64,000 nt of DNA, from assembly GCA_035489575.1 (NCBI GenBank), contig DATHJY010000013.1, forward strand, positions 283,346 through 347,345. The letters are read 5' to 3'. The DNA comes from Verrucomicrobiia bacterium. GTDB lineage: Bacteria; Patescibacteriota; Saccharimonadia; Saccharimonadales; JAGQNK01. The notes below the pieces were generated by a model that saw only the letters and a program-made list of their open reading frames with translations, did no database searches and was not told the origin of the DNA. Below, in pieces: positions 1-54,557 of this stretch; position 1 is the stretch's first letter, and each line of letters starts with the position of its first letter. The translations under genes were made by a program, and so were the position numbers.

Positions 1-3000
1 GAATCCACCCAGATTGCGTTGGTACTGGCGCCCTGGATGTAAATGCCGTAATTACTAGTTGCACCCTTGGTCAGATCACCTATATGCAAACCGTATTGAT
101 TCGTAACCGTTCCAGCGCCAGCCACATTATCAACCTTGAAGCCGTAGCGATTTGACAGTATGGTGTTAGCGTTTACCGTACCAGAGCTTATTGCGCCATA
201 CACATTAGTTGCCGTGAGCGTTCCCGTACCAGATTTGCTGAGGGCAAATCCTGACTGGAGGCCCGTTATGCTTGCAATTGTAGAATTGAAGTTACCAGTG
301 CCATTAACTGCCGGAGTCGATGAAAAGCTTGCGTGTCCACCACTGTCGGTTAAGATAGCGGCTGTCGTATTTATATTGCGTGTACTCCAATCACGGAACA
401 GGAAGTCGGTTCCAAGTACCGATGCATCAACATTTATATTCATAGTCGAGCGAAAATCAAACGCGTAAAAACTACCAGGAGTACTCTTATTGATGGTACT
501 TTCAACCTTAATCGCAGATTCCGCGTAATTGGTTAAGTCACGGGTGCTGGCGATAAGCTCCATCGAACCTAGGCTATCTATAGTTGCAAGATCACTCCCC
601 CCTGAATCTGCGAGCCGCAACAGGGATTTTTTGTAAGTGAAGCTCGATCCACCACTCACATCAGGGTTAAAGTCAGCGGTCACTGTTAAGGATGTATTAC
701 TTGGTATGGTTAGAATCGTTCGAGCTTGGCCATTTGCAATGATAGTATCACCTATGGTGAGTTCGGTCGTGAAAGCGGTACCAGATCCCGTCACAGTAGT
801 TGTAGCACCCGTACTGGTTATCGTACCAGTACCAGTGAGAGCAGTGTTCCGAGCATGAACGATGGCGTCAGTAGTTGCAGTACCGATCCCAACCTGATTC
901 TTAGCAGTATTCACATATAGTGCATCAGTATCCACAGCCAAATTGCCCGCGAAAGTACTCGTGCCCGTTCCCTGCACCGTAAGGTTTCCGGTAAGAGTCG
1001 CGTTTCCACTTGTATCTAAGGTAAGTCGAGTGGTACCAGCAGTCTCGAAACTCAATGTCTGCCCAGCGCCATTCGTGCCAAGCACCGCATTGGCGCCAAA
1101 GTCGTTTCCACCCTGTACAAAGGCAGTAGCTGTTGTAGCAAATGTTGAATTACATGCAGCTAGTTGATTGGCGCTGTTGCGACACACTACACTGTTATTA
1201 TCAGCCAGACCAGGAGCATTAAGGAAGACGCGTCCCAGACTGTCGACCCCGAATAGATCCCCATTACCCACAGTCAGTGCGTAGGTAGGGGTAGCATCAC
1301 CGATTCCAAAATTGCCGTTACTATGGAACCGAGCCATCTCGCTACCATTCAAATCAAAGGCAATGCCACCAAGTGTTGATTCATTAAACGACTTTAGGGT
1401 AAGGAGCCTACTGGCAGCCAGCTGGCCACCATCAGTGCTACTGTTGTCAATATGGCCTACCTTGTAGTTACCGGCTATATTGACAAATGGCGCACTTGCC
1501 GCATCGTAATACAGGTTAATGGCACGGCTGCTGTTCCCATCTTTCACCCGTAGCCCAGCATCTATTCCATCGGCGTTTTGCACTAAGTGCAGCTTGGCAC
1601 CTGGTGCATTTGTACCTATACCTACTCTTCGGTTAGAGGTACCGATAAACAAAACACTTTCACTGCCTACAAAGTCGAGGTTATTAGGAGTAGTAACCTG
1701 ACTAGTGTGAATTGTTAAGGTATCGCCAGAAGCATCGCCAATAGTAGTATTACCCTGGATCGACATGTTTCCGGTTGCCGTGACCGCCCCTCCGTCGGCC
1801 ACCGTAAATACGTTCGTGCCATTGTCTTGCAAGTTAAGAATATTCCCCGTACTGGTTGCGTTATTTACGGTCAGTGCCACACCCGACGATCCACCAGTTA
1901 CGGTAGTCGAACCAGTACTACTAATAGCCAATCGAATATTGCCAGCTCCGCCCGTGACCAAGTTAAGCGCCTGAGCATCGGTCGTACCCAGTACAGCCGT
2001 GGCGCCAAAGGCATTACCGCCCTGAGTAAAGGCCGCACCGTTGCCAGTCGTATTACACACTGCCAACTGTTTCAAGCTATTGCGACACAGGTAAGTTACC
2101 GTATCAGTAGTCCCAAGTGTACCCACCTCCAGAGTGCCATCCAGCCTGGTGGCTCCGTCATCTACAAATAGCGCGTAGGTGTCAGCTCCTTGAATGTACA
2201 CGCCGTAGTCGTTGGTTGCGGCAGAGGTCATATTCTCTACGTATAAACCGTACTGATTAGTAATGCTTGTCCCCGAACCAACAATACTATTAGAGGCCAC
2301 TAGAGCTGCAGCCCTGTCTAATGTAAATGAGCCTGCACCCGTGGCAACCGAACCCACAACGCCAGCTAAGGACTTGTTAGTACCGCCCGCATTTACCGAT
2401 ATAGCACCACTGCGTATACCTGCACACTCGAAAGAGCTCGTGGTGGGGGTACAATTGTCCCCTGGCGCAAAGAGCTCTGCTACAATCAGTCCCTGCTGAG
2501 CACTAGGGGTAGCGAAATCTCCAATGGCAACGTGGCCATTGAAATCTCCATCACCAGCAACCTCGAGCATAACACCCGGGGTGACCGTTCCTATCCCCAC
2601 TCGTCCATTCACCGCGTCAACAAAAAGCGTATTTGCATCAAAGGCCACGTCCCCATCACCTTGTATTTCTATTCTGTTAACATTGTTTGTCTCAAGAAAG
2701 AAACTCGTGTTGTCGTTTGTTCCAACGACAATCGGGCCAGCCTGACCACCGTTTAGAATATCGCCGTCCCCATACCCACAGTTACCACTGTCCAAACATA
2801 CCTCCCCGGAAGCATCGGGCAGTGTAATCTGCGGACTATTCGCCAGGCTGCTAAACTTTAGTGTTCCCCTATTTGCTCCACTTGTCTGTGCAAGCTCACT
2901 AGCCTGGAAGGCATACGGAAGTGCCGTCAATCTGATACGCGGACTCATCTCACCATCCCAGGTAGGAGATCCCGCACCGCCGATATTCATAGTCAACCAG

Positions 3001-3419
3001 TGCTGCTCGTTCCACTTAATAGTAGACGGGAATCCAGTGACACTTCCCAGGTAAACACTCAAGTAGCCACTCTTGACCGTAACTTTGTTGCCACCCGTCC
3101 TGGTCTCTGTCCATAGACAGTTCGGATCGGGCGTACCGCTACCATAAGTACAAGCCCCTTGATCCTTGGGGCTGTTCGCATCAGTTGCGACATTATACAG
3201 TTTGAATTCAATGTTATAAGTTCCGTCTGGAACGATAGCCCCAGAGGAGCCCAGTAGTCGTGCTTGAAAGTTCAAAGTGGACGAGGGAGCGCCTTCAACA
3301 GAACCTTGGCGTTGCACCACGAATGGTACCGCCACGATGAGGGCGATTAGACCCAGTTTTAGGCTGTCCAGGAGTGCCGTCTTTAGACGCCCCTGTCCGT
3401 TTTTGTTTGATTTGAACAT
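1..3419 (-). CDS. Giant membrane-anchored repeat/fibre-like surface protein, N-terminal part only (at least 1139 codons). The ORF runs off the left edge, so it is absent from the ORF track.
   Basis: ATG at 3419 gives MFKSNKNGQGRLKTALLDSLKLGLIALIVAVPFVV, an N-terminal TM anchor. Hand translation in this frame stays open at ~3400-2800, ~2100 (VTYLCRNSLKQLAVCNTTG), ~1190 (NNSVVCRNSANQLAACN) and 100-3 (QYGLHIGDLTKGATSNYGIYIQGASTNAIWVDS). These stretches reproduce motifs of the 2034-aa paralogue at 4393-10497. Confidence 0.8.
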   Translation of the reverse strand, partial: MFKSNKNGQGRLKTALLDSLKLGLIALIVAVPFVVQRQGSVEGAPSSTLNFQARLLGSSGAIVPDGTYNIEFKLYNVATDANSPKDQGACTYGSGTPDPNCLWTETRTGGNKVTVKSGYLSVYLGSVTGFPSTIKWNEQHWLTMNIGGAGSPTWDGEMSPRIRLTALPYAFQASELAQTSGANRGTLKFSSLANSPQITLPDASGEVCLDSGNCGYGDGDILNGGQAGPIVVGTNDNTSFFLETNNVNRIEIQGDGDVAFDANTLFVDAVNGRVGIGTVTPGVMLEVAGDGDFNGHVAIGDFATPSAQQGLIVAELFAPGDNCTPTTSSFECAGIRSGAISVNAGGTNKSLAGVVGSVATGAGSFTLDRAAALVASNSIVGSGTSITNQYGLYVENMTSAATNDYGVYIQGADTYALFVDDGATRLDGTLEVGTLGTTDTVTYLCRNSLKQLAVCNTTGNGAAFTQGGNAFGATAVLGTTDAQALNLVTGGAGNIRLAISSTGSTTVTGGSSGVALTVNNATSTGNILNLQDNGTNVFTVADGGAVTATGNMSIQGNTTIGDASGDTLTIHTSQVTTPNNLDFVGSESVLFIGTSNRRVGIGTNAPGAKLHLVQNADGIDAGLRVKDGNSSRAINLYYDAASAPFVNIAGNYKVGHIDNSSTDGGQLAASRLLTLKSFNESTLGGIAFDLNGSEMARFHSNGNFGIGDATPTYALTVGNGDLFGVDSLGRVFLNAPGLADNNSVVCRNSANQLAACNSTFATTATAFVQGGNDFGANAVLGTNGAGQTLSFETAGTTRLTLDTSGNATLTGNLTVQGTGTSTFAGNLAVDTDALYVNTAKNQVGIGTATTDAIVHARNTALTGTGTITSTGATTTVTGSGTAFTTELTIGDTIIANGQARTILTIPSNTSLTVTADFNPDVSGGSSFTYKKSLLRLADSGGSDLATIDSLGSMELIASTRDLTNYAESAIKVESTINKSTPGSFYAFDFRSTMNINVDASVLGTDFLFRDWSTRNINTTAAILTDSGGHASFSSTPAVNGTGNFNSTIASITGLQSGFALSKSGTGTLTATNVYGAISSGTVNANTILSNRYGFKVDNVAGAGTVTNQYGLHIGDLTKGATSNYGIYIQGASTNAIWVD

Positions 3420-33504: not shown

Positions 33505-33973
33505 CCAAATATATCACTCATGATAAGCCATGAATGTAAGATATATCACAGATGATATATTGTAACGATGTCCATGCAGTTGGGCACGGATAGATTATTA
33601 AAGGCAAACAGTGGTGAGTGGTCTCACCAATAACTAGTCAATGTACTTCCCTATGATCATTTCTGATAAAATTATCAGATTTGATCATAGGTCGTAAAAA
33701 GTCAATGGGACTATTAGTACGCTTCGGCTCAATACGTTACCGCACTTTCACCTTGCGCCTATCAAACTGATCGTCTTTCAGTGTCCTCATAGGGAAATCT
33801 TATCTTGGGATCAGTTTCGCGCTTAATATGCTTTCAGCGCTTATCTGCTCCGCACATAGCTACCCAACCATGCCATTGGTATGACAATTGGTACACCAGC
33901 GGTGCGTTCACCCCGGTCCTCTCGTACTAGGGGCAAATTCCCTCAAATTTCCTATCGTCCACAGCGGATATAA

Positions 33974-34007
<34 letters not shown>

Positions 34008-34125
34008 ACGTACCTCTTTAACCGGCGAACAGCCGGACCCTTGGAAGGTGCTCCCCCTCCAGGATGAGATGAGCCGACATCGAGGTGCCAAACAGCGCCG
34101 TCTATGTGAACTATTGGGCGCTATA

Positions 34126-34157
<32 letters not shown>

Positions 34158-34517
34158 GTGCGTCGTCGATCCCACTTTCATATAACCGAAGTTAAATACG
34201 ACGGGTCACTAGCTCCTACTTTCGTATCTGTTTGGCCTGTATGCCTCACAGTCAAGCTGGCTTATGCGCTTGCACTATCACTTCGATTTCCATCCGAAGT
34301 TAGCCAACCTTTGAACGCCTCCGCTACTCTTTAGGAGGCAACCGCCCCAGTTAAACTACCCATCAGACACTGTCCCCAAACCGGATAACGGTTGAGGTAA
34401 GAACACAAATACAATAAGGGTGGTATTTCACCGGTGACTCCACCAAAGCTAGCGCCTTGGTTTCAAAGTCTCCCACCTATGCTACACATATTGCACCTAT
34501 GCCCAATGTCAAACTGT

Positions 34518-34549
<32 letters not shown>

Positions 34550-34844
34550 GCGGACAGACGGCATCTTTACCGTCAATGCACTTTCACCGAGCTCTTCGTT
34601 GAGACAGTGCCCACATCATTACTCCATTCGTGCGGGTCAGAACTTACCTGACAAGGAATTTCGCTACCTTAGGACGGTTATAGTTACCGCCGCCGTTCAC
34701 TGGGGCTTCAGTTCGCACCGTGAAGCGCTCCCCTTAACCTTCCAGCACCGGGCAGGAGTCAGCCCCTATACATCCACTTTCGTGTTAGCAGAGACCTGTG
34801 TTTTTGGTAAACAGTTGCGTGGGCTCCTTAGCTGCGGCCTAGAT

Positions 34845-34995
34845 ATGCCGCAGTGGTTCCAATTGCACTAAAGTACTGTACTCCGAAGAGTACATACCCT
34901 AGTATGATGTCACTTATCTCAATCTTGAGTCGTATCGTAAAAGCCACCGAAGTGGCTATTGTTACTCTATGTTCATCTTAGAAACACTGCGGCAT
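34845..34995 (-). other. 23S rRNA expansion (~150 nt) in the variable helix-63 region
   Basis: It is closed by the perfect 11-bp inverted repeat ATGCCGCAGTG / CACTGCGGCAT. Inside are two UUCG-capped hairpins (CCACuucgGUGG and GUACUCuucgGAGUAC). E. coli has ~75 nt between the flanking conserved blocks; this gene has ~200. Confidence 0.6.
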
Positions 34996-35493
34996 ACCCA
35001 GGCAGACCTTATCCCGAAGTTACGGTCGCTGTATTGCCGAGTTCCTTAACGAAGAATCACTCGTACGCCTTGGTCTTCTCGACCTGAGCACCTGTGTCGG
35101 TTTGCGGTACGGATAGCCATACACATAAGTTATCAAGCTTTTCTAGTCACCACTCTCGCAAGAATCAGCCAATAAAGGCCTCTCATTCGCAGTTGTTACG
35201 CTGCTTAGACGGATATAACCATGAATCCGCTCCTACTAACATGATGCGCACTGATAACAATGTATGACTAGTACGGGAATATTAACCCGTTGTCCATCGC
35301 CTACGCTACGCGCCTCGGCTTAGGACCGACTAACCCTGGGACGATTACCGTGGCCCAGGAAACCTTGCTCTTTCGGCGGGCAGGATTCTCACCTGCCTTG
35401 TGGTTACTCATTCCAGCATTCTCACTTCATACCGCTCCACCGGACCTCACAGTCCGACTTCGATGCAATATGAACGCTCCTCTACCGCTCATG

Positions 35494-35628
35494 CATAGCA
35501 TAAGCAGATCCATGCTTCTGATTTCCGCCATCAGAAAGTCTTTTAGCTCCCTGTCCCTTGGTCAAAATTTCTTTTGGCCGGTGGACCGTTGAGCTCTTAA
35601 GACTGTCGTTGAATCTGCTTATGCTATA
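35494..35628 (-). other. IVS-like insertion (~135 nt) at the tip of 23S helix 45
   Basis: It lies between the conserved blocks CACCGAAG and GGUAGAGGAGCGUUC. It is closed by a perfect 15-bp stem, ATAGCATAAGCAGAT / ATCTGCTTATGCTAT. E. coli has ~28 nt at this position. Confidence 0.65.
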
Positions 35629-36502
35629 CACAAGCCCATATCTTCGGTGCTATGCTTGAGCCCCGTTACATTTTCCGCGCAAGATCTCTTGACGAGTGAG
35701 CTGTTACGCACTCTTTAAATGAATGGCTGCTTCTAAGCCAACATCCTCGTTGTTTAAGAAATCTCACCTCGTTTCCCACTTAGCATAGACTTGGGGACCT
35801 TAGATGATGGTCTGGGCTGTTTCCCTTTCGAGCGCCGAGCTTAGCCCCGACGTTCTAACTGCTGTAGTTCCACTGATAGTATTCGTAGTTTATCAAGGGT
35901 GGGTACCCTTGCGGGCCCCAGTCCGAAACAGAGCTCTACCCCTATCAGCTACCGTACAACGCTAGCCCTAAAGCTATTTCGAGGAGAACCAGCTATCTCC
36001 AAGTTCGATTGGCATTTCACCGCTAACCACAGGTCATCCGGGGGTTTTGCAACACCCTACGGTTCGGTCCTCCACGCAGTTTTACCTGCGCTTCAACCTG
36101 CCCATGGTTAGGTCACTTGGTTTCGGGTCTACTAAACAGTACTATGGTCGGCCTATTCAGCCTCGCTTTCACTACGCGTCCGCCAGATGGCTTACGCTTG
36201 CACTGCTTAAGTAACTCGCTGGATCGTTCTACAAAAAGCACGCCGTCACCCCGAAGGGCTCCGACTCCTTGTACGCACACAAATTCAGGTTCTATTTCAC
36301 TCCCCTTCCGGGGTTCTTTTAACCTTTCCCTCACGGTACTTGTTCTCTATCGATCATAAGATATATTTAGCCTTGGGACGTGGTCGTCCCAGCTTCAGTC
36401 AAGGTTTCACGTGTCCCGACCTACTCGACAAAACAAATATAAGGTTAGCGAAACTTGGCATACCAGGCTTTCACTGTCTATGGCCAGTCTTTCCAGACTA
36501 TT

Positions 36503-36675
36503 CTGCTCGCATCGCTAATTTCTTACCTTATGCAGGTTGGTGATAGCACCTGCTTCCAAAACGGAATTCTAGACTAGGTCTAGTGCTCCGTCTTGGTTGT
36601 TTGTAATGTCACAACCCCTTTTAGATATTCGTCTATCAACTTATCCGTCTGAATTAACAGACAGAAACCTAAAAA
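36503..36675 (-). other. 23S rRNA domain I insertion (~140 nt extra)
   Basis: It lies between GCGAGCGAA..GCCCAAAC and AGUCUGGAAAGACUGGCC. E. coli has ~30 nt there; this gene has ~175. Local hairpins include GGTTGT..ACAACC and CTAGAC..GTCTAG. Confidence 0.5.
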
Positions 36676-37605
36676 GTTTGGGCTCTTGCGGATTCGCTCG
36701 CCACTACTACCGCAATCGTTGTTTACTTTCTATTCCTCGAGGTACTAAGATGTTTCAGTTCCCCCGGTTCCCTTCAACAAGCCTATATATTCAGCTTGAG
36801 ATGACTAGGCATGACCCCAGCCGGATTTCTCCATTCGGACATCTTCGGTTCATAGCTTAGTAAGCAGCTCCCCGAAGCTTTTCGCAGCTTCTCACGTCCT
36901 TCATCGGTATCTTATGTCAAGGCATCCCTTGTGTGCGCTTGAGTAACTTTTTACGATTTCATCCGTTGGGCAAAGCCCAATGAATGATTAGTGCCTGCGG
37001 GACAAAGTCCTGCAGACTCTAAAAGTACAATTGACTAGTTATTGGTATTACCAATAACCTAGTGCAGTTTTACTGCACTAGTATGAAATGTGATAACTGC
37101 TTATGCAGCTTTAAACATTTCATGCCGTTTGCCTTTAATCTCAAAATTTGAATCTAATTGTTAAGATACGACTCAAGACGGCCCACAAAACTATCTTGTT
37201 TCTTAGCACTGTAACTTGAGTTTACGCTAAAAGCTTGGCGGTTTATTACGAGTGCCTCGTGCCTAAACTCAAGCAGCCCAAGCATTTTAGCACTAATAAC
37301 AGAGGCGGTCAACCCTCTGGTGCTGTAAAAGAAGCTACAGTTTATACTCTGTTCTCATCAGTTGTGACGATCTAGGGCTTAACCGACACCGTAGCGAATA
37401 GTAGCTAAAAGGCCCACCTCTATCATTAGCACCCCGTATTGCTAGAGTATGACCCTAGCCGTCAATACAATCCCACTAGACATAGCTTATAGATGCCCTA
37501 CCAATGGCAGGTCATAATAGATACAGTTAAACTATCTCTATGCGTCAAAAACTGTGTATGGTCTTTTGCAAAGAAAAGAGGCGTCTAGTAGACGCCTCTT
37601 TTCTT

Positions 37606-46370: not shown

Positions 46371-49300
46371 CTATTTGTCTGGTACACCGCGGACGTGTAG
46401 TGTACCCTCTGTATCTATATAAATAGTATCGTCGTTATTACTATCCTTCTTGGGGTTCAGCTGAGCAGCTGCGAGCTGAGCCACATCCTCATCATCGTCC
46501 GCATCCTGGATCTGGGGTTGATCGGTCTGAGGCGGCGCGGGTGCATCAAGCGCATCGCGAGATAGCGTACCAGGTGTTTGGCCACCGGTAGAATTGTTTT
46601 TTGGCTGTGGTTCAACAGGAGCCGGAGGAATAGACGTACCCTTATTCACGGGCGGGAAACCTGGCTCTGGCGGACCCTTGGAAATTTGATGGGCTGTGTT
46701 GGCTTTTTTAGGTGGCTCCATGGGCCTTTCGATGGCCGTAGGCGACACTGGAGCGACTTGTGGCACCCGTGGCTTAACCGGAGCTTGTGGCAGCTGCTGT
46801 GGTGGTGCGAGATGGGACGCTGGTGGTGCTGGAGTGTTTGACCCAACGGGTGCGGGGCTCGTGCGGCGTTTCGCAAGCCAATCGTCCAGGAACGAGCCGG
46901 AACCCGGAGCTGCAGCAGGACGAGGTGGCGCTGGACGGCCACCAGCAGCGCGTGCCGGTAAGCCACCAGCCGGAGGAGGCCCAAGAGGGCCAGGCTGACC
47001 AAATGCCGGTCGAGGCGATTCTTTAGTTGCAAGGCGGGCAAATATATCTGAGGCCACAGCCGATCTTGGTCGTCCGAACTTTGCTGCCGATAGCTGCTTA
47101 AGTGCAAGTGCAAGCTGCGGGTTGGCGTTACCAAGCGGCGGTAGAGTTGCCATGCTAAAGGGTTGTGTTGGCACACCGTTAATGAGCGTCCGGACAACAG
47201 TATTGGCATTGGGCACCCGCAGCAAGTCTTCGCCATCAAAAAATGGCTGGAAGTATCGAGTCAGGGAATCAACGTCGTTCTGCCCCACCCTAAAGGCTAC
47301 AATGCTACCCATGTTGCCAAATACGGCATCACGAATTTCTTCCGAGAGCTGAGTCGTGAACTGGTTGGCAACAATAAGGTTTAGGTGATACTTTCGGGCT
47401 TCGGACATGATGGTGGCAAAAGAATCTGTTGAGAAGTTTTGGAACTCATCAACATAGAGACAAAAGTCCTTTCGTTCGCTCTCTGGGACGTTAGCCCTGC
47501 TCATTGCCGCAGCTTGGAATTTCATAACAAAGATCATACCGAGCAGCTTAGAGTTCAGATCGCCTGTTTTACCCTTGCTCAAGTTAACGAGCAGGATTTT
47601 CTTGTTGTCCATAATTTCACGCAAATTAAACGAGCTCTTACTCTGACCGATAATGTTGCGCATCATCTCGTTAGCCATGAACGCACCGAACTTGCTCACG
47701 AACCAACCCAAGACTTCACTCTTGTGATAATCACTCGTTTGAGCCATTTCTTTATTCCAGAAATCTAGAACAATTTGATCTTTTACGTGCTTCAGTAAAT
47801 CTTTGGCATATTTATTGTCAGTAAACACCTTTGGTATATCAATGAAAGTACCACCGTCAGGATTTGCCATGACCGTCTTGGCGGCCATTCTAAACCAGTG
47901 CTCGTATCGGGGGCCGATAATACCCTGGCGCTGAGGGTCGTACAGCTTATAAAGCATATTAATTGCCTCTTGAATGAGAAAGTCCTGCTGATCAACTGAG
48001 TCAAACTCGAAAAGGTTGAGCCCCATAGGATAATCCATATCTGCTGGGCTAAAGTAGACGACGTCTTCTGTTCGTTCACGCGGCACCATTGATAATAGTT
48101 TTTCGGCAGTATCACCATGCGGGTCAACAAAGGCAAACCCTTCGCCACTCAGCATGTCCTGCAAGGCTAAGTTCTCCAGAAAGGTAGACTTACCAGTACC
48201 CGTCTGACCGACGACATACATATGACGCTGACGATCTTGCAGAGCTATTCTGATTGGCTTTTTTGCCCCTCTGAAAATATTGTAGCCCAGTAATAAACCC
48301 TCGTCAGATACATTACGGGGGCCATCAACTTGTTTTGACGACTGCCGTTCTAGCTGTGACGTTGGGGTGCTACGTTGATCCGGGAAGTGAAACAATGTTG
48401 CGAGCTCTACAGAGTTAAGGATGCTCTGGTTGGAATCCTGTGGGAAAAACCGCATGATATAGGCTGTCGCGAACTGTTCGATGTCTCTAGCGGGTGTGAA
48501 CTTAAAGCCATTCTTGCCAGGAGCGTCGAAAAGCGAGAAGGTGGCAATGATATTCCCAAGGATAGCCTGCGAGCGCTGGGATATATTAGAAGACGCTATG
48601 ACTCGTATTAGTACCTCATAACCCGGATAGCGTGTCTTGTCATCTATAGAGTCAAGAACGGCCTGCTCAAGACTAGACAGCTCTGGCTTGTCGGGTCCCC
48701 CTTTGTCCTTGTCTTCTGGCGGTTTCGTAAAGGCTACTGCCAGCTGCTTCATCCAAAAAGCAACGTTATTAATAAACCCGCTCTTACTATCTTTGCCCTT
48801 CCGTTTTTTGCCAGCCATGGCGGAGGCCGTCTTTCCCCACTCAGGGTTTGCGGGTCGCATCAAGAATTGGATACCGACTCCATCGTCTTTCTCTAGTGTG
48901 GATAAGGCGTTTAGCAGCGAAACCATGGCATCACGCTTGATGTCCTGGTAGGTTGCAATGGGATACGCGTAGTTTTCTTTCAGCGTAAACTCACCACCTG
49001 TTGTCCCACTGATCTTTCCGACTGGACTAAATATATTGTGCTCAGACGCCTCTTCCAGCCGAGCGGCAGGATAGGCACTGATAACTGCCTGTGTCACCAA
49101 ATCGACAAGCGCCACCGGAACGGCTGCATAAAAATGCACGAAGCCCTTGCTACCGACTATCTCAAAAGTAAAGTGTCGTTGGCCATAAAATTTACTTTTA
49201 AAGCCCTTCTGAAGTGAACTAGCGATGATGTTATAAAGGATCTGAGCTTTTGATATATTTTCATCGGCTATATCGCGTATGTCCCTACTGCCTAGATCGA

Positions 49301-49466
49301 TATCGTCACTTTGTGGTGGCAGGTGGATATAAAGCGGTACCATTTTAAGGCCACGCTCAAAATTTTTCTGTTCCCTAAATATTTTGCGAACCTGCATAAA
49401 TACGATGGGAGCAGTTAAAGACCCTACGGCCAGAAAGATTATAAATATTGTCAGTAGGGCGCCCAT
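46371..49466 (-). CDS. Membrane-anchored P-loop ATPase of the VirD4/TraD/TraG coupling-protein / HerA-FtsK type, with a ~270-aa Pro/Ala-rich C-terminal tail
   Basis: N-terminal TM helix (MGALLTIFIIFLAVGSLTAPIVF). Walker A is MYVVGQTGTGKST. FVDPHGD follows, and Walker B is LYVDEFQNF. The low-complexity tail (PPPAGGLPARAAGGRPAPPRPAAAPG...) is encoded at 46371-~47200. Confidence 0.7.
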   Translation of the reverse strand: MGALLTIFIIFLAVGSLTAPIVFMQVRKIFREQKNFERGLKMVPLYIHLPPQSDDIDLGSRDIRDIADENISKAQILYNIIASSLQKGFKSKFYGQRHFTFEIVGSKGFVHFYAAVPVALVDLVTQAVISAYPAARLEEASEHNIFSPVGKISGTTGGEFTLKENYAYPIATYQDIKRDAMVSLLNALSTLEKDDGVGIQFLMRPANPEWGKTASAMAGKKRKGKDSKSGFINNVAFWMKQLAVAFTKPPEDKDKGGPDKPELSSLEQAVLDSIDDKTRYPGYEVLIRVIASSNISQRSQAILGNIIATFSLFDAPGKNGFKFTPARDIEQFATAYIMRFFPQDSNQSILNSVELATLFHFPDQRSTPTSQLERQSSKQVDGPRNVSDEGLLLGYNIFRGAKKPIRIALQDRQRHMYVVGQTGTGKSTFLENLALQDMLSGEGFAFVDPHGDTAEKLLSMVPRERTEDVVYFSPADMDYPMGLNLFEFDSVDQQDFLIQEAINMLYKLYDPQRQGIIGPRYEHWFRMAAKTVMANPDGGTFIDIPKVFTDNKYAKDLLKHVKDQIVLDFWNKEMAQTSDYHKSEVLGWFVSKFGAFMANEMMRNIIGQSKSSFNLREIMDNKKILLVNLSKGKTGDLNSKLLGMIFVMKFQAAAMSRANVPESERKDFCLYVDEFQNFSTDSFATIMSEARKYHLNLIVANQFTTQLSEEIRDAVFGNMGSIVAFRVGQNDVDSLTRYFQPFFDGEDLLRVPNANTVVRTLINGVPTQPFSMATLPPLGNANPQLALALKQLSAAKFGRPRSAVASDIFARLATKESPRPAFGQPGPLGPPPAGGLPARAAGGRPAPPRPAAAPGSGSFLDDWLAKRRTSPAPVGSNTPAPPASHLAPPQQLPQAPVKPRVPQVAPVSPTAIERPMEPPKKANTAHQISKGPPEPGFPPVNKGTSIPPAPVEPQPKNNSTGGQTPGTLSRDALDAPAPPQTDQPQIQDADDDEDVAQLAAAQLNPKKDSNNDDTIYIDTEGTLHVRGVPDK

Positions 49467-49949: not shown

Positions 49950-50282
49950 CTATAAATCTATCTTACGCACATAGAAGGTTACGCTAGCTAGAAGCGCAAG
50001 CAATATTAAAAGGTCCTTGATAGATAGCTGATGCAGAGACTGCAGAATGATTAGCAAGACTATAAGTCCGCTCACTATAAGTGAAAGGTACTTTTTTTTC
50101 GGAGCGCTCACTGGGGCCGGCTGAAAGCCCACACTGGCGAATTGATATACCGTAACAGCCAACAAAATAAATGGAATAACCAGTAATACAAGCGGTAACC
50201 TGTACGGATCTGTCGAGAACATAAAAGTGAGCAACAAGATCGGTGTTGCACATAGATATATAATTTTTTTACCCTGTTTCAT
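49950..50282 (-). CDS. Small 4-TM membrane protein (110 aa), first gene of the ATPase operon
   Basis: Four hydrophobic segments (IIYLCATPILLLTFMF, LPLVLLVIPFILLAVTVYQFA, YLSLIVSGLIVLLIILQSL, LLILLALLASVTFYV). I recognise no family motif. Confidence 0.55.
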   Translation of the reverse strand: MKQGKKIIYLCATPILLLTFMFSTDPYRLPLVLLVIPFILLAVTVYQFASVGFQPAPVSAPKKKYLSLIVSGLIVLLIILQSLHQLSIKDLLILLALLASVTFYVRKIDL

Positions 50283-50523
50283 GCGCTCTCATTTCGCTTA
50301 TGTCCGACATGGGCAAAAAACACCGCCAACTTAAAAGCAGTGCTCTTATTCTTGGAGCCGGGACGGTAAATCCGCTCTTTATTGTAGAATATTTAGCGCT
50401 TACCGTCCTTGGCTTTGACTGACCGCTCTCATTACGAGAGCGATATCGGTTTTACCCGTAGATGTAAGTTTTTGTTTTTCAATCTTACGCTAACAATATA
50501 CTACTTTGATTCATAAATGTCAA
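50283..50523 (-). promoter_or_regulatory. Sigma-70-type promoter plus a ~205-nt structured 5' leader of the 4-TM/ATPase operon
   Basis: In the RNA sense: TTGACA (50518-50523), 17 nt, TATATT (50495-50500). The leader contains the hairpins CGCTCTC/GAGAGCG (50424-50442) and GGACGGTAA/TTACCGTCC (50361-50408). Confidence 0.55.
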
Positions 50524-51147
50524 TACCCAGCAGTTGTTTTATTTACTATACATATACTGTTAACAGGAGTTGAGATACTCAGAAGTTTTACAAAAATACT
50601 GTTGTTAAAAAGTTATCATTTTGAATGTAGCTAGTACTTGAAGCCTTACAAAAACTCGTGCAGATTCGAATATGAACCGTGTGGCTAGCGATTTCTAGCC
50701 AGCCAGCCTTGATCTTGACGGCCCAGTAGTGGATGGTTGCACATCGCAGCCCACACTAATCGTCCCAAACAAAACATTTTCCGACGTAGCAAACAGCCTC
50801 AGCCAGTGCAAAAAGACCAGGAAACCTAGCTAGCAATGAGATTTAAGGTGCAAGCCATACGTCGCTCTAACCAAGACTTCTTCGGGTTCAAGAGATTTGA
50901 GCCAATATGACTATAGCCGCCTACACGACCAAGGCCTGGTGTCAGTGTACATGGGAGGTGGCGGTGTTGCGCGTGACGAGCCCTCCTCTGCTACCCAGCA
51001 AGAAAGCTTACTATGGCATCTCCGTGCGACATATCTTTTCGGTTCGCAGCCAGGCTTTTTGAGTGAGTGTGAGGCTTTGTCGCCCTGCCCGCCTGGCAAG
51101 TTATGCACAGGCAGAAAAATATAGTAGGAAAATTAGCATGAGAACTA

Positions 51148-51176
51148 TTGACAGTGCCTTTGTGGCCGGCTAATAT
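51148..51176 (+). promoter_or_regulatory. Near-consensus sigma-70 promoter
   Basis: TTGACA (51148-51153), a 17-nt spacer, then TAATAT (51171-51176). Confidence 0.6.
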
Positions 51177-51182
51177 ATGCGT

Positions 51183-51349
51183 AGCACTTGAATAAAAAAA
51201 GTGCTCAAAAACAAAAACGAATCTGAAACAACGGCTTCTCGCAAGCCGTTGTTCCATAAAGACAACGGGTTCATTCATAAAAAATCCTGACAAAATAAAC
51301 GACAAAAACTTATCAGTAAACGATCTCCCGGCGGGAGATCGTTTTCATT
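51183..51349 (+). ncRNA. Candidate ~167-nt small RNA or terminator-controlled leader of the comM-like gene (unclassified)
   Basis: It is bounded by the promoter at 51148-51176 and a strong terminator, AAACGATCTCCCggcGGGAGATCGTTTT (51318-51345). It contains an 11-bp hairpin AACAACGGCTTctcgcAAGCCGTTGTT, with an alternative partner ACAACGGG downstream. Confidence 0.35.
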
Positions 51350-51381
51350 CTGGAGAGTTTTTTGGCACAATAGTCAACGTC

Positions 51382-52902
51382 ATGGGGGCAACAGTTAAAA
51401 GCATCTTAGATGCTGGCAATCAGGCGGTTTTGATAGACGTGGAATGTCACGTCTCTAATGGCCTGCCCACTATTCTGATTGTTGGATTTGCAAATAAAGC
51501 AGTCGACGAGTCAAAGGAAAGAATCCGGGGCGCATTCTCTAGCGCCAAGCTAGAACTACCCCGCAAGCGCATTATCATAAACCTCGCCCCGGCCGATGTG
51601 CCCAAGAACAGCACAAGTTTTGACCTTCCTATGGTCGCGTCTATATTGTTAGCAAGCGGACAAGTCGCCCAGCCGATACCGCACACAACGGCACTCATTG
51701 GAGAGCTAGGACTAGATGGAAACATCCGTGCAGTACGTGGCATCATCGGCAAACTGTTGGGTGGCCGTCAGAAAGGACTCAAGACCTTTTATATCCCTCG
51801 AGATAACTTGCAGCAGGCCATGCTAGTACCTGGGCTCGAGCTTGTGCCGGTCGCAACAGTCAGAGAACTTTACTTAGACTTGACGGATACAGTTTCCCTA
51901 AAACGTGTTCAATCTGGAGCAAAGATTCTGGCCACCGATAAAACCAATGTGCACTCTATTGATTTTGGTGATGTTGTCGGCCAAGCGCGAGCCAAGCGAG
52001 CACTGGAGATTGCAGCAGCAGGTGGGCACAATATATTCATGAATGGCGCACCCGGATCTGGTAAAAGCATGTTAGCCAAGGCACTGCCAACAATATTGCC
52101 AGACATGACAACCGAGGAGATGCTCGAGACTACTCACGTTCATAGCTTAACGAGCAAGGAGTACGAACAAATCATTACACAGCGCCCCTTTCGGTCGCCC
52201 CACCATAGCTCAAGTATGATTTCCATTATGGGTGGCGGGCAAAACCCTCGACCAGGCGAAATAAGCCTAGCTCATAACGGTGTATTATTTTTTGATGAAT
52301 TCCCAGAGTTCAATCGTGCCGTCCTGGAGGGACTGCGGCAACCACTAGAAGATCGAAAAGTGTCCATTGCGCGCGCAAGAGATACCGTTGAATTCCCTGC
52401 CCACTTCGTTCTTGTAGCTACGAGTAACCCATGTCCATGTGGCTATTACGGGTCTTCTAAGACCTGCATATGCCCACCCTATCAGATAGCTAAGTATCGC
52501 CAAAAGGTGTCGGGCCCAATCATAGACAGAATAGATTTGTACATCGATGTGGACGAGGTTAAGCACGAGCAACTTCTACGTGACAGCAGTCAAGAATCAA
52601 GCAGCTCCATCCAGAAACGAGTCGCCAAGGCACGGAAGCGGCAGCTAGATAGATACAGATCCGTGTCTAAACAAAATGCGACCCTAACCAACCGAGACAT
52701 AAAAGGTTTTCTTACCATACAGCCAGAAGCAGAAGAGCTCCTTAACCGAGCAGCCCAAAAGCTGGATATTTCTGCCAGAAGTTACATGAAAATCCTCAAG
52801 GTCGCGCAGACAATAGCAGACCTGTCGGCACAATCCAGCATACAGCCAGAGCACGTCAGTGAAGCTCTGCAGTATAGGCGACCGAGCAATCAAACTTTTT
52901 GA
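51382..52902 (+). CDS. comM: YifB/ComM-family Mg-chelatase-like AAA+ ATPase
   Basis: 506 aa. N-terminal Lon-like domain, GAPGSGKSMLAK, GVLFFDEFPEF, and the SNPCPCGYYG zinc motif. Confidence 0.85.
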   Translation: MGATVKSILDAGNQAVLIDVECHVSNGLPTILIVGFANKAVDESKERIRGAFSSAKLELPRKRIIINLAPADVPKNSTSFDLPMVASILLASGQVAQPIPHTTALIGELGLDGNIRAVRGIIGKLLGGRQKGLKTFYIPRDNLQQAMLVPGLELVPVATVRELYLDLTDTVSLKRVQSGAKILATDKTNVHSIDFGDVVGQARAKRALEIAAAGGHNIFMNGAPGSGKSMLAKALPTILPDMTTEEMLETTHVHSLTSKEYEQIITQRPFRSPHHSSSMISIMGGGQNPRPGEISLAHNGVLFFDEFPEFNRAVLEGLRQPLEDRKVSIARARDTVEFPAHFVLVATSNPCPCGYYGSSKTCICPPYQIAKYRQKVSGPIIDRIDLYIDVDEVKHEQLLRDSSQESSSSIQKRVAKARKRQLDRYRSVSKQNATLTNRDIKGFLTIQPEAEELLNRAAQKLDISARSYMKILKVAQTIADLSAQSSIQPEHVSEALQYRRPSNQTF

Positions 52903-54124: not shown

Positions 54125-54126
54125 AA

Positions 54127-54557
54127 GACCAGATTATCCGTAAGCCGGGTTCTGTTCTAGCTAATCATCTATCTAGTTCCGCGGTTGCCCACGGAATCAA
54201 GCGGGTGTAGCAATGAACTCTGGCGGGACACCAGTCCCGTTTAGCGGGACGAGAGTCCATTTCCTTGCAGCAGACAGGGTTTACCTCTTCCCAGCGTCAC
54301 CGCGGGGAACTGTGGGCTCTTACCCCACTCGTTTCACCCTTACCACCGAAGTGGCAGTTTCGTTTCTGTGGCACTTTCCCTAGGGTTGCCCCCGGTTGCG
54401 GTTAGCAACTGTCTCTCCCTACGCTGCCCGGACTTTCCTCTTACCTACCTTTTGATCAGCGATAGTCGGTGGGTGAAAGCTTTCATTGCTAATGACACTC
54501 TTTGCCACCTTCTTCACTTGCCAAAAGGTAGGCAAGCGATTAGCCGATAATCTGGCC
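54127..54557 (-). ncRNA. rnpB: RNase P RNA (bacterial type A)
   Basis: The reverse complement contains GAGGAAAGTCCGGGCAGCG (P4 5' strand) and ACAGAACCCGGCTTACGGATAATCTGG (P4 3' strand plus P1). The 5' CCAGATTATCGG pairs with the 3' CGGATAATCTGG. Confidence 0.9.

Follow-up and report, generated by a model that had tools for sequence, protein, structure and literature searches.

The intergenic region between p110 and comM/yifB

The window analyzed here is a 64-kb (64,000 nucleotides, nt) stretch of DNA whose source genome belongs to the Saccharibacteria (Saccharimonadales). The subject of this study is its interval 50524-51147, which a reading made from the sequence alone had flagged as either a large unclassified structured non-coding RNA (ncRNA) or a heavily decayed gene remnant. 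The interval sits in an intergenic region of 1100 nt, flanked on the left by p110, an open reading frame (ORF) of 110 amino acids (aa), and on the right by comM/yifB; a 143-aa ORF (p143) and a 1031-aa VirD4/TraD-like ATPase (p1031) lie to the left of p110. We found two conserved blocks in this region, A on the left and B on the right, and between them an unexplained core occupying a slot of variable content. The locus is organized as follows.

49950-50282, minus strand: p110, membrane-protein ORF left of the flagged interval
50523-50495, minus strand: promoter of the left-hand unit, TTGACA-17-TATATT, matching 11 of 12 consensus positions, with TTGAC invariant in 46 aligned relatives
50524-50562, minus strand: conserved DNA upstream of the minus-strand promoter, with the GTTGTTTTATT box at 50533-50543, based on alignments and the nhmmer envelope of block A, which reaches to ~50562
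50563-51099 (about), no strand: unexplained core, lineage-specific and GC-normal, neither conserved, structured nor recognisably coding
51100-51147, plus strand: conserved DNA upstream of the plus-strand promoter, with GTTATGCACAGGC at 51102-51114, based on alignment and the nhmmer match of block B, which starts at ~51098
51148-51176, plus strand: promoter of the comM/yifB unit, TTGACA-17-TAATAT, with hexamers conserved in 58 aligned relatives
51382-52902, plus strand: comM/yifB, TIGR00368 match of 543 bits

Several observations of the sequence-only reading were borne out. All palindrome and helix strings that it listed are present where it had placed them, with the sole exception of GCCAGGC, which starts at 51049 and not at 51048. 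The stretch 50524-50640 is AT-rich as described (GC content of 0.28-0.37 measured across 50450-50650), and the step to higher GC is real, with values of 0.45-0.60 across 50650-51100; the GC content of the core is 0.51, compared with 0.495 for the coding DNA of the window. The two outward-facing promoters are also real: both sides match the consensus, and their hexamers are conserved in relatives, including the 46 aligned for the minus strand. Between them lie overlapping ORFs of 51-104 aa on both strands, and the interval is indeed without a credible ORF. The earlier observation is therefore confirmed in part, as its strings, GC step and promoters are real and its structure is at chance level. 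When this region is aligned four ways with that of the closest relatives, homology ends at ~50550 and ~51100, so that the outer ~25-45 nt on each side of the flagged interval (50524 to ~50550 and 51100-51147) belong to the conserved DNA upstream of the promoters and not to the unexplained core. The GTTGTTTTATT and GTTATGCACAGGC boxes in this DNA, upstream of the -35 hexamers, are possible operator sites; in relatives, the GTTGTTTTATT box was seen to be part of a loose TTGT...ACAA inverted repeat.

The whole intergenic region is 100% identical in two independent public assemblies (JGI 3300020034 and ENA ERZ27268082), and a third (Logan, SRR7026570) is identical to the window for the first 148 nt of the region and stops before the core. 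Since the same DNA occurs in independent public assemblies, the core is not an assembly artefact. These identical contigs offer no sequence variation at the locus to analyze.

Conservation, folding and coding potential of the core

Related loci were retrieved via the neighboring ComM/YifB protein. They comprise 80 genome loci, all of which (80/80) come from Saccharimonadales metagenome-assembled genomes, and were later extended with 80 metagenome loci to a total of 160. The gene order p1031-p143-p110-A-slot-B-ComM is conserved among these relatives. When the intergenic region was compared with them by nhmmer, two conserved non-coding blocks were detected, block A at ~50312-50562 and block B at ~51098-51362 (nhmmer envelopes), and nothing between them. 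The core alone (50563-51098) gave no nhmmer match and no significant match in blastn or tblastx in the 160 loci, the latter having been suggested as a check for a degraded protein gene, and blastn found no match for it in PLSDB plasmids or INPHARED phages.

The distance between blocks A and B varies almost continuously in relatives from ~50 to ~1050 nt and is ~570 nt in the window; one outlier (L118) has a slot of ~3.4 kb with a 1032-aa ORF. An all-versus-all comparison of the slots yielded 59 singletons, and the slot of the window was without a partner. At the same position, relatives carry genes for an alpha/beta hydrolase (two loci), a DHH-family protein (two loci), C39-like peptidases (four loci), a GNAT acetyltransferase (three loci) or a DprA/SLOG-like protein (one locus). 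These genes are intact and mutually unrelated, and across the loci they fall into five or more unrelated Pfam families. Thus, the flanks and their order are conserved at this position while the middle varies in length, and the genes that it holds in different lineages are unrelated, the two properties by which we define a variable slot. None of the cargo proteins of the relatives matches the core of the window, nor were recognisable remnants of them found in other slots. Relative to the GC content of ComM, gene-bearing slots range from -0.02 to -0.08 and slots without an ORF mostly from -0.09 to -0.20. Most of the remaining slots of >250 nt are AT-rich and ORF-less; five are GC-normal and ORF-less like that of the window.

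The variability of the slot bears on the possibility that the core is regulatory DNA, whose binding sites, spacing or insulation would tune both divergent promoters in this lineage. Its location directly between two conserved promoters with conserved upstream boxes speaks for such a role, and its coding-level GC content hints at constraint. However, the core contains no repeated motifs beyond short chance pairs, and because the relatives function with unrelated spacers of ~50 to ~1050 nt, no particular spacer sequence or length is required, so we regard this explanation as very unlikely.

The sequence-only reading had called the core heavily self-complementary, but its folding energy is no better than that of dinucleotide shuffles. 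The z-score of the minimum free energy of 50640-51130 was +0.21 on the plus and +0.27 on the minus strand, and in 120-nt windows sliding across the whole intergenic region, the core scored between -1.5 and +2.1 on both strands, compared with -3.3 to -6.0 for the left and -2.6 to -4.8 for the right flank. As the same scan detects the structure of the flanking blocks A and B, the lack of structure in the core is not a failure of the method. The core has one best local hairpin:

50682-50701, no strand: TGGCTAG-cgattt-CTAGCCA, z-score of -2.5, with 3 of 200 shuffles as good

This hairpin was picked post hoc from ~540 nt and is consistent with chance.

Known RNA families gave no match either. All families of Rfam release 15 were compared with 50283-51381, and nothing reached the gathering thresholds; at E≤10, the single match in the core was a 31-nt chance match to a human long non-coding RNA model (13.9 bits compared with a gathering threshold of 40), and the other weak matches, mostly to microRNA models, fall on the hairpins of block B. 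The core was likewise unmatched by ARAGORN and by our custom covariance models R1 (block B) and R2 (block A). Transfer-messenger RNA (tmRNA) features had been reported as absent, in agreement with ARAGORN, which identified three tRNAs in the window but no tmRNA. A similarity of 50623-50704 to the promoter and leader of block B, which could have indicated a decayed copy, was borderline in local alignment (score of 31 versus 24.2±3.6, equalled by 11 of 200 shuffles). A decayed block B duplicate was rejected, as the core is matched neither by R1 with filters off nor by an nhmmer profile of the block B family at E≤100.

These results do not support the proposal of a large unclassified structured ncRNA, given that the core has no Rfam match, folds at shuffle level and is not conserved in 160 loci with conserved flanks; the absence of conservation in relatives is an outcome that the sequence-only reading had itself named as counting against this proposal. 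A more modest version would be a lineage-specific functional ncRNA, weakly structured or antisense, that is transcribed through the core, with a candidate start at the minus-strand TACTATATT near 51112-51120 and a candidate end at a weak terminator-like site at 50830-50816. In its favor are the coding-level GC content, which argues against old neutral DNA, the -10-like TATATT on the minus strand and the terminator-like site at minus 50830-50816. Yet there is neither a structure signal nor conservation in any relative, and the numbers of promoter-like sites (3 in the region compared with 2.1±1.4 in shuffles) and terminator-like sites (3 compared with 1.1±1.1) are within expectation. The TATATT string near 51115-51125 does exist as described, but it lies inside the conserved DNA upstream of the comM promoter. 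Taken together, we consider such an RNA improbable.

To assess coding potential, we trained a log-odds score of codon usage on 31 genes from the window; it replaced a third-order Markov coding profile, which lacked the power to distinguish even the real p110. The longest stop-free stretch of the core is the following:

50840-51121, plus strand: 94 codons, containing the 75-aa ORF at 50897-51124; not a credible gene

Its codon-usage score falls at the 1.6th percentile of true genes. No open segment with 40 or more codons scores above the 8th percentile of true gene segments, and such scores lie within the distribution for non-coding open frames. An open run of 94 codons was reached by 24% of 1000 dinucleotide shuffles, and the minimum number of stops per 142-codon window, two, by 31% of them. 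A word-indexed protein search with the 94-codon stretch found no homologue. An exhaustive HMMER scan of the 94-aa stretch against 1.84 billion representatives returned six long tandem-repeat proteins only, which we rejected as an artefact of repeat summing, as each of them aligned repeatedly to a short segment of the query that differed from protein to protein. The six frames of the core with masked stops had no above-threshold match in Pfam and none in NCBIfam or PDB sequences, and tblastx of the core against the window found no translated match.

One sub-threshold Pfam match deserves mention. Peptidase_A24 (PF01478) matched residues 72-140 of a minus-strand frame (window positions 50986-50780) with E = 0.023 and 15.6 bits, compared with a cut-off of 26.5 bits, in a search with six queries. 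There are four in-frame stops inside this match. The catalytic motif of prepilin peptidases is GxGD; in the aligned stretch, LG*SDVW, a stop replaces the catalytic glycine, and neither the window nor the related loci contain an ORF with GxGD[VIALF]K that could serve for comparison. We rejected this candidate relic, since the match is below the cut-off, spans stops and was not reproduced by NCBIfam, PDB or homology search.

The second half of the earlier proposal, a decayed gene remnant, is compatible with the context, namely the cargo genes of the relatives and the coding-level GC content, but neither a coding signal nor a translated match was found. In its specific form, the core would be the relic of a particular protein gene, either for a Peptidase_A24 on the minus strand or an orphan or foreign gene in plus-strand frame 2 (50642-51124, with three in-frame stops). 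The Pfam match, a frame 2 with just two stops in 142 codons and the cargo genes that fill the slot in relatives are points for it. Against it stand the weakness of the match just described with its GxGD motif not intact, a frame openness at chance level (p = 0.31), a codon usage resembling non-coding DNA, repeat-protein artefacts as the only result for the 94-aa stretch and the failure of the relatives' cargo proteins to match the core. The relic of a specific gene thus appears unlikely.

A genuine orphan small-protein gene among the short ORFs is more doubtful still. The ORFs exist, with 75 aa (50897-51124, plus strand), 65 aa (50911-51108, minus strand) and 95 aa (50991-51278, minus strand), and the 95-aa ORF is called by public pipelines on the identical contigs. 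However, they overlap each other on both strands, have lengths expected by chance, lie between the 0.5th and 2nd percentiles of true genes in their codon-usage scores and lack homologues in the word-indexed search. The 95-aa ORF runs antisense to the conserved leader of block B and the comM promoter with non-coding codon usage, and its public call is probably spurious. Of the explanations weighed, a small-protein gene is the least probable.

A recognizable mobile element was not found. Short repeats of 10-15 nt occur at chance level only, and none of them brackets 50563-51099, so that there are no terminal inverted repeats or target-site duplications; nor is there a second copy of the core in the 64-kb window, the related loci, plasmids or phages. 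Hence, within the searched DNA, the core has neither the terminal repeats nor the extra copies of an insertion sequence (IS) element or a miniature inverted-repeat transposable element (MITE). Its exact 23-28-mers were not found in IMG/VR.

Two conserved structured RNAs beside the slot

The flanking blocks each contain a structured RNA preceded by one of the two promoters.

50351-50488, minus strand: block A RNA of ~140 nt, conserved and structured, with multiple hairpins (model R2, 133 bits, one copy in the window)
50303-50347, minus strand: terminator-like hairpin and U-run after block A, based on the fold, with an equivalent hairpin and T-run in most relatives
51182-51257, plus strand: block B RNA, a two-hairpin leader forming the first 76 nt of the predicted comM transcript (model R1, 100 bits)
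51318-51350, plus strand: second strong hairpin in the comM leader, with a U-rich tail (fold z-score of -4.7), just before the start codon at 51382

Block A reads on the minus strand as conserved promoter, RNA, terminator-like hairpin and start of p110, the start codon (50282) lying ~20 nt past the terminator-like hairpin. In its first element, GUAAG...CUUAC form a hairpin around AAAACAAAAA; CGCUC/GAGCG form a further helix, after which comes the invariant GUCAGUC; and GGACGGUAA pairs with UUACCGUCC in a long helix that has GCGCU/GAGCG inside it. Across 30 sequences, 97.5% of cells are paired and 11 of 26 pairs show compensatory (double) changes. None of 500 shuffles matched the percentage paired, the number of double-change cells or the covariation score, one of 500 matched the number of covarying pairs, and the signal collapsed in slid controls. 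The single-sequence folding z-score is -6.0. The covariance model found one copy each in 75 of the 80 genome loci, the other five being without the upstream flank. Because block A and p110 are inverted together in one relative (L087), block A is tied to p110, and it is a candidate for a riboswitch-like leader of p110 or for a free-standing small RNA linked to it. The 1031-aa ATPase of the same unit (46371-49466, minus strand) has the domains T4SS-DNA_transf and TraG-D_C and is 65-83% identical across relatives, far above ComM; no other conjugation genes are obvious nearby.

Block B begins with a GCACUU...AAGUGC hairpin, followed by the linker CUCAAAAACAAAAAC and then by AACAACGGCUU-CUCGC-AAGCCGUUGUU, which forms a second hairpin; the stem of this hairpin has 13 bp, its CUCGC loop is invariant and 10 of its pairs covary. 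In all, 11 pairs of the block show compensatory changes, and the G-U wobbles fit the plus strand only. The folding z-score is -6.7. The sole strong match of R1 in the window is block B itself, and nhmmer matched it in 139 of the 160 loci, in every case on the same strand as ComM and directly upstream of it. Promoter and leader are >90% identical across relatives whose ComM proteins are ~56% identical. Both divergent leaders share AAAAACAAAAAC (at 50468-50479 and 51207-51218), ~25 nt past the predicted transcription start, the pair being a perfect 12-nt inverted repeat in the DNA, 727 nt apart. AAAAACAAAAAC could serve both leaders as a signal for protein binding or one related to translation.

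Blocks A and B are covarying, near-universal in the order and absent from Rfam: neither matches Rfam 15 in the window, and Rfam on 15 relatives returned RNase P and tRNA only and no family for the two blocks. We also found no description of them in the literature on riboswitches or structured RNAs of Saccharibacteria/Patescibacteria.

Further observations concern other parts of the window. The RNase P RNA noted by the earlier reading is present, but Rfam places it at 54125-54470 on the minus strand and not at 54127-54557. The 23S rRNA match at 33693-36953 (minus strand) covers 3261 nt compared with a model of 2925 positions, implying an insertion or insertions of ~340 nt; rRNA insertions are known from bacteria of the candidate phyla radiation (CPR), which fits the length of this match. 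At 469-3276, a stretch of ~2.8 kb with normal GC content contains a series of short ORFs (51-114 aa) on the plus strand and no longer ones; it could be a small-gene cluster or a fragmented gene.

Origin of the core and comparison with known systems

The flanks of the slot are conserved, its content is variable and the core lacks signals of structure, conservation and coding. On this basis, we favor, with some reservation, the interpretation that the core is lineage-specific filler of the variable slot, likely the relic of an inserted fragment or of a lost cargo gene, without a sequence-specific function; its origin by insertion or decay and its lack of function are what we infer. The left unit would consist of the promoter, the block A RNA and then p110, p143 and the VirD4-like ATPase, and the right unit of the promoter, the block B leader and ComM/YifB. 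Because insertions between the two promoters interrupt neither unit, the position could gain and lose DNA freely; depending on the lineage, it is nearly empty or holds AT-rich non-coding DNA or an unrelated accessory gene. The ~540 bp in the window are statistically like a random sequence of their own composition and probably have no sequence-specific role other than to separate the two promoters.

Some points weigh against this interpretation. Neither a donor sequence nor an ancestral gene was found for the core, and a word-indexed search with its concatenated six frames, a weak negative, scored nothing among the 8000 candidates at which it was capped. The closest ComM identity was 69% in genome loci and 68% on metagenome contigs, the nearest relatives as a group having 66-69%, so that the comparison is one without genus- or species-level relatives. 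Moreover, the GC content of the slot minus that of ComM is -0.01 in the window, the second-highest of 80 slots. Mutation pressure is usually AT-biased, and old junk DNA is expected to become AT-enriched. Because the core has a coding-level GC content, whereas old junk would be AT-enriched, it should be young or under some constraint. This GC content is the sole non-random property of the core and suggests DNA that is recent or under some constraint. We tentatively consider a bolder possibility, namely that the slot is a dedicated, recurrent landing site for accessory DNA in Saccharimonadales with the core as a recent insertion, or that the core is a young, weakly structured and species-specific regulatory RNA; we hold this to be possible, if doubtful. 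Considering the flanking VirD4-like and ComM genes, natural transformation is a possible route of insertion.

A GC-rich stretch with many hand-picked palindromes can be accounted for entirely by chance when it is compared with shuffles and relatives. The flagged core is an ordinary feature, and the interesting objects are its two conserved neighbors and the variable slot. The latter defines a variable cargo slot in the Saccharibacteria, a group of tiny, otherwise streamlined genomes. The former are two conserved, covarying RNAs absent from Rfam, one in front of a membrane-protein gene beside a VirD4-like ATPase and one in front of comM/yifB, which makes them candidate regulators of the functions by which these epibionts take up or transfer DNA.

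Compared with known systems, the slot resembles intergenic hotspots or cargo slots in its conserved flanks and order, its variable middle and the unrelated accessory genes that it carries by lineage. Unlike them, it shows no integrase, no tRNA or tmRNA attachment site, no direct-repeat scars and no hallmarks of mobile elements, and it is small (≤1.1 kb in most loci) and flanked by two leader RNAs and promoters, not by protein genes alone. The core is similar to a bacterial pseudogene in being non-coding with coding-level GC where relatives have genes, but it differs in lacking translated similarity, excess frame openness and coding-like codon usage. With the large ncRNAs (tmRNA, 6S, the signal recognition particle (SRP) RNA, OLE, ROOL, GOLLD and raiA), it shares only its size (~500 nt) and intergenic position, and it has no covariance-model match, thermodynamic signal or conservation. 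Blocks A and B differ from cis-regulatory leaders and riboswitch-like elements in having no Rfam family, and for block A the resemblance is one of architecture alone. This architecture is nevertheless that of such leaders, with a promoter, a conserved covarying structure and a gene in both blocks, to which block A adds the terminator-like hairpin, and, as would a riboswitch-like leader, block A has stayed with its gene in the rearranged L087.

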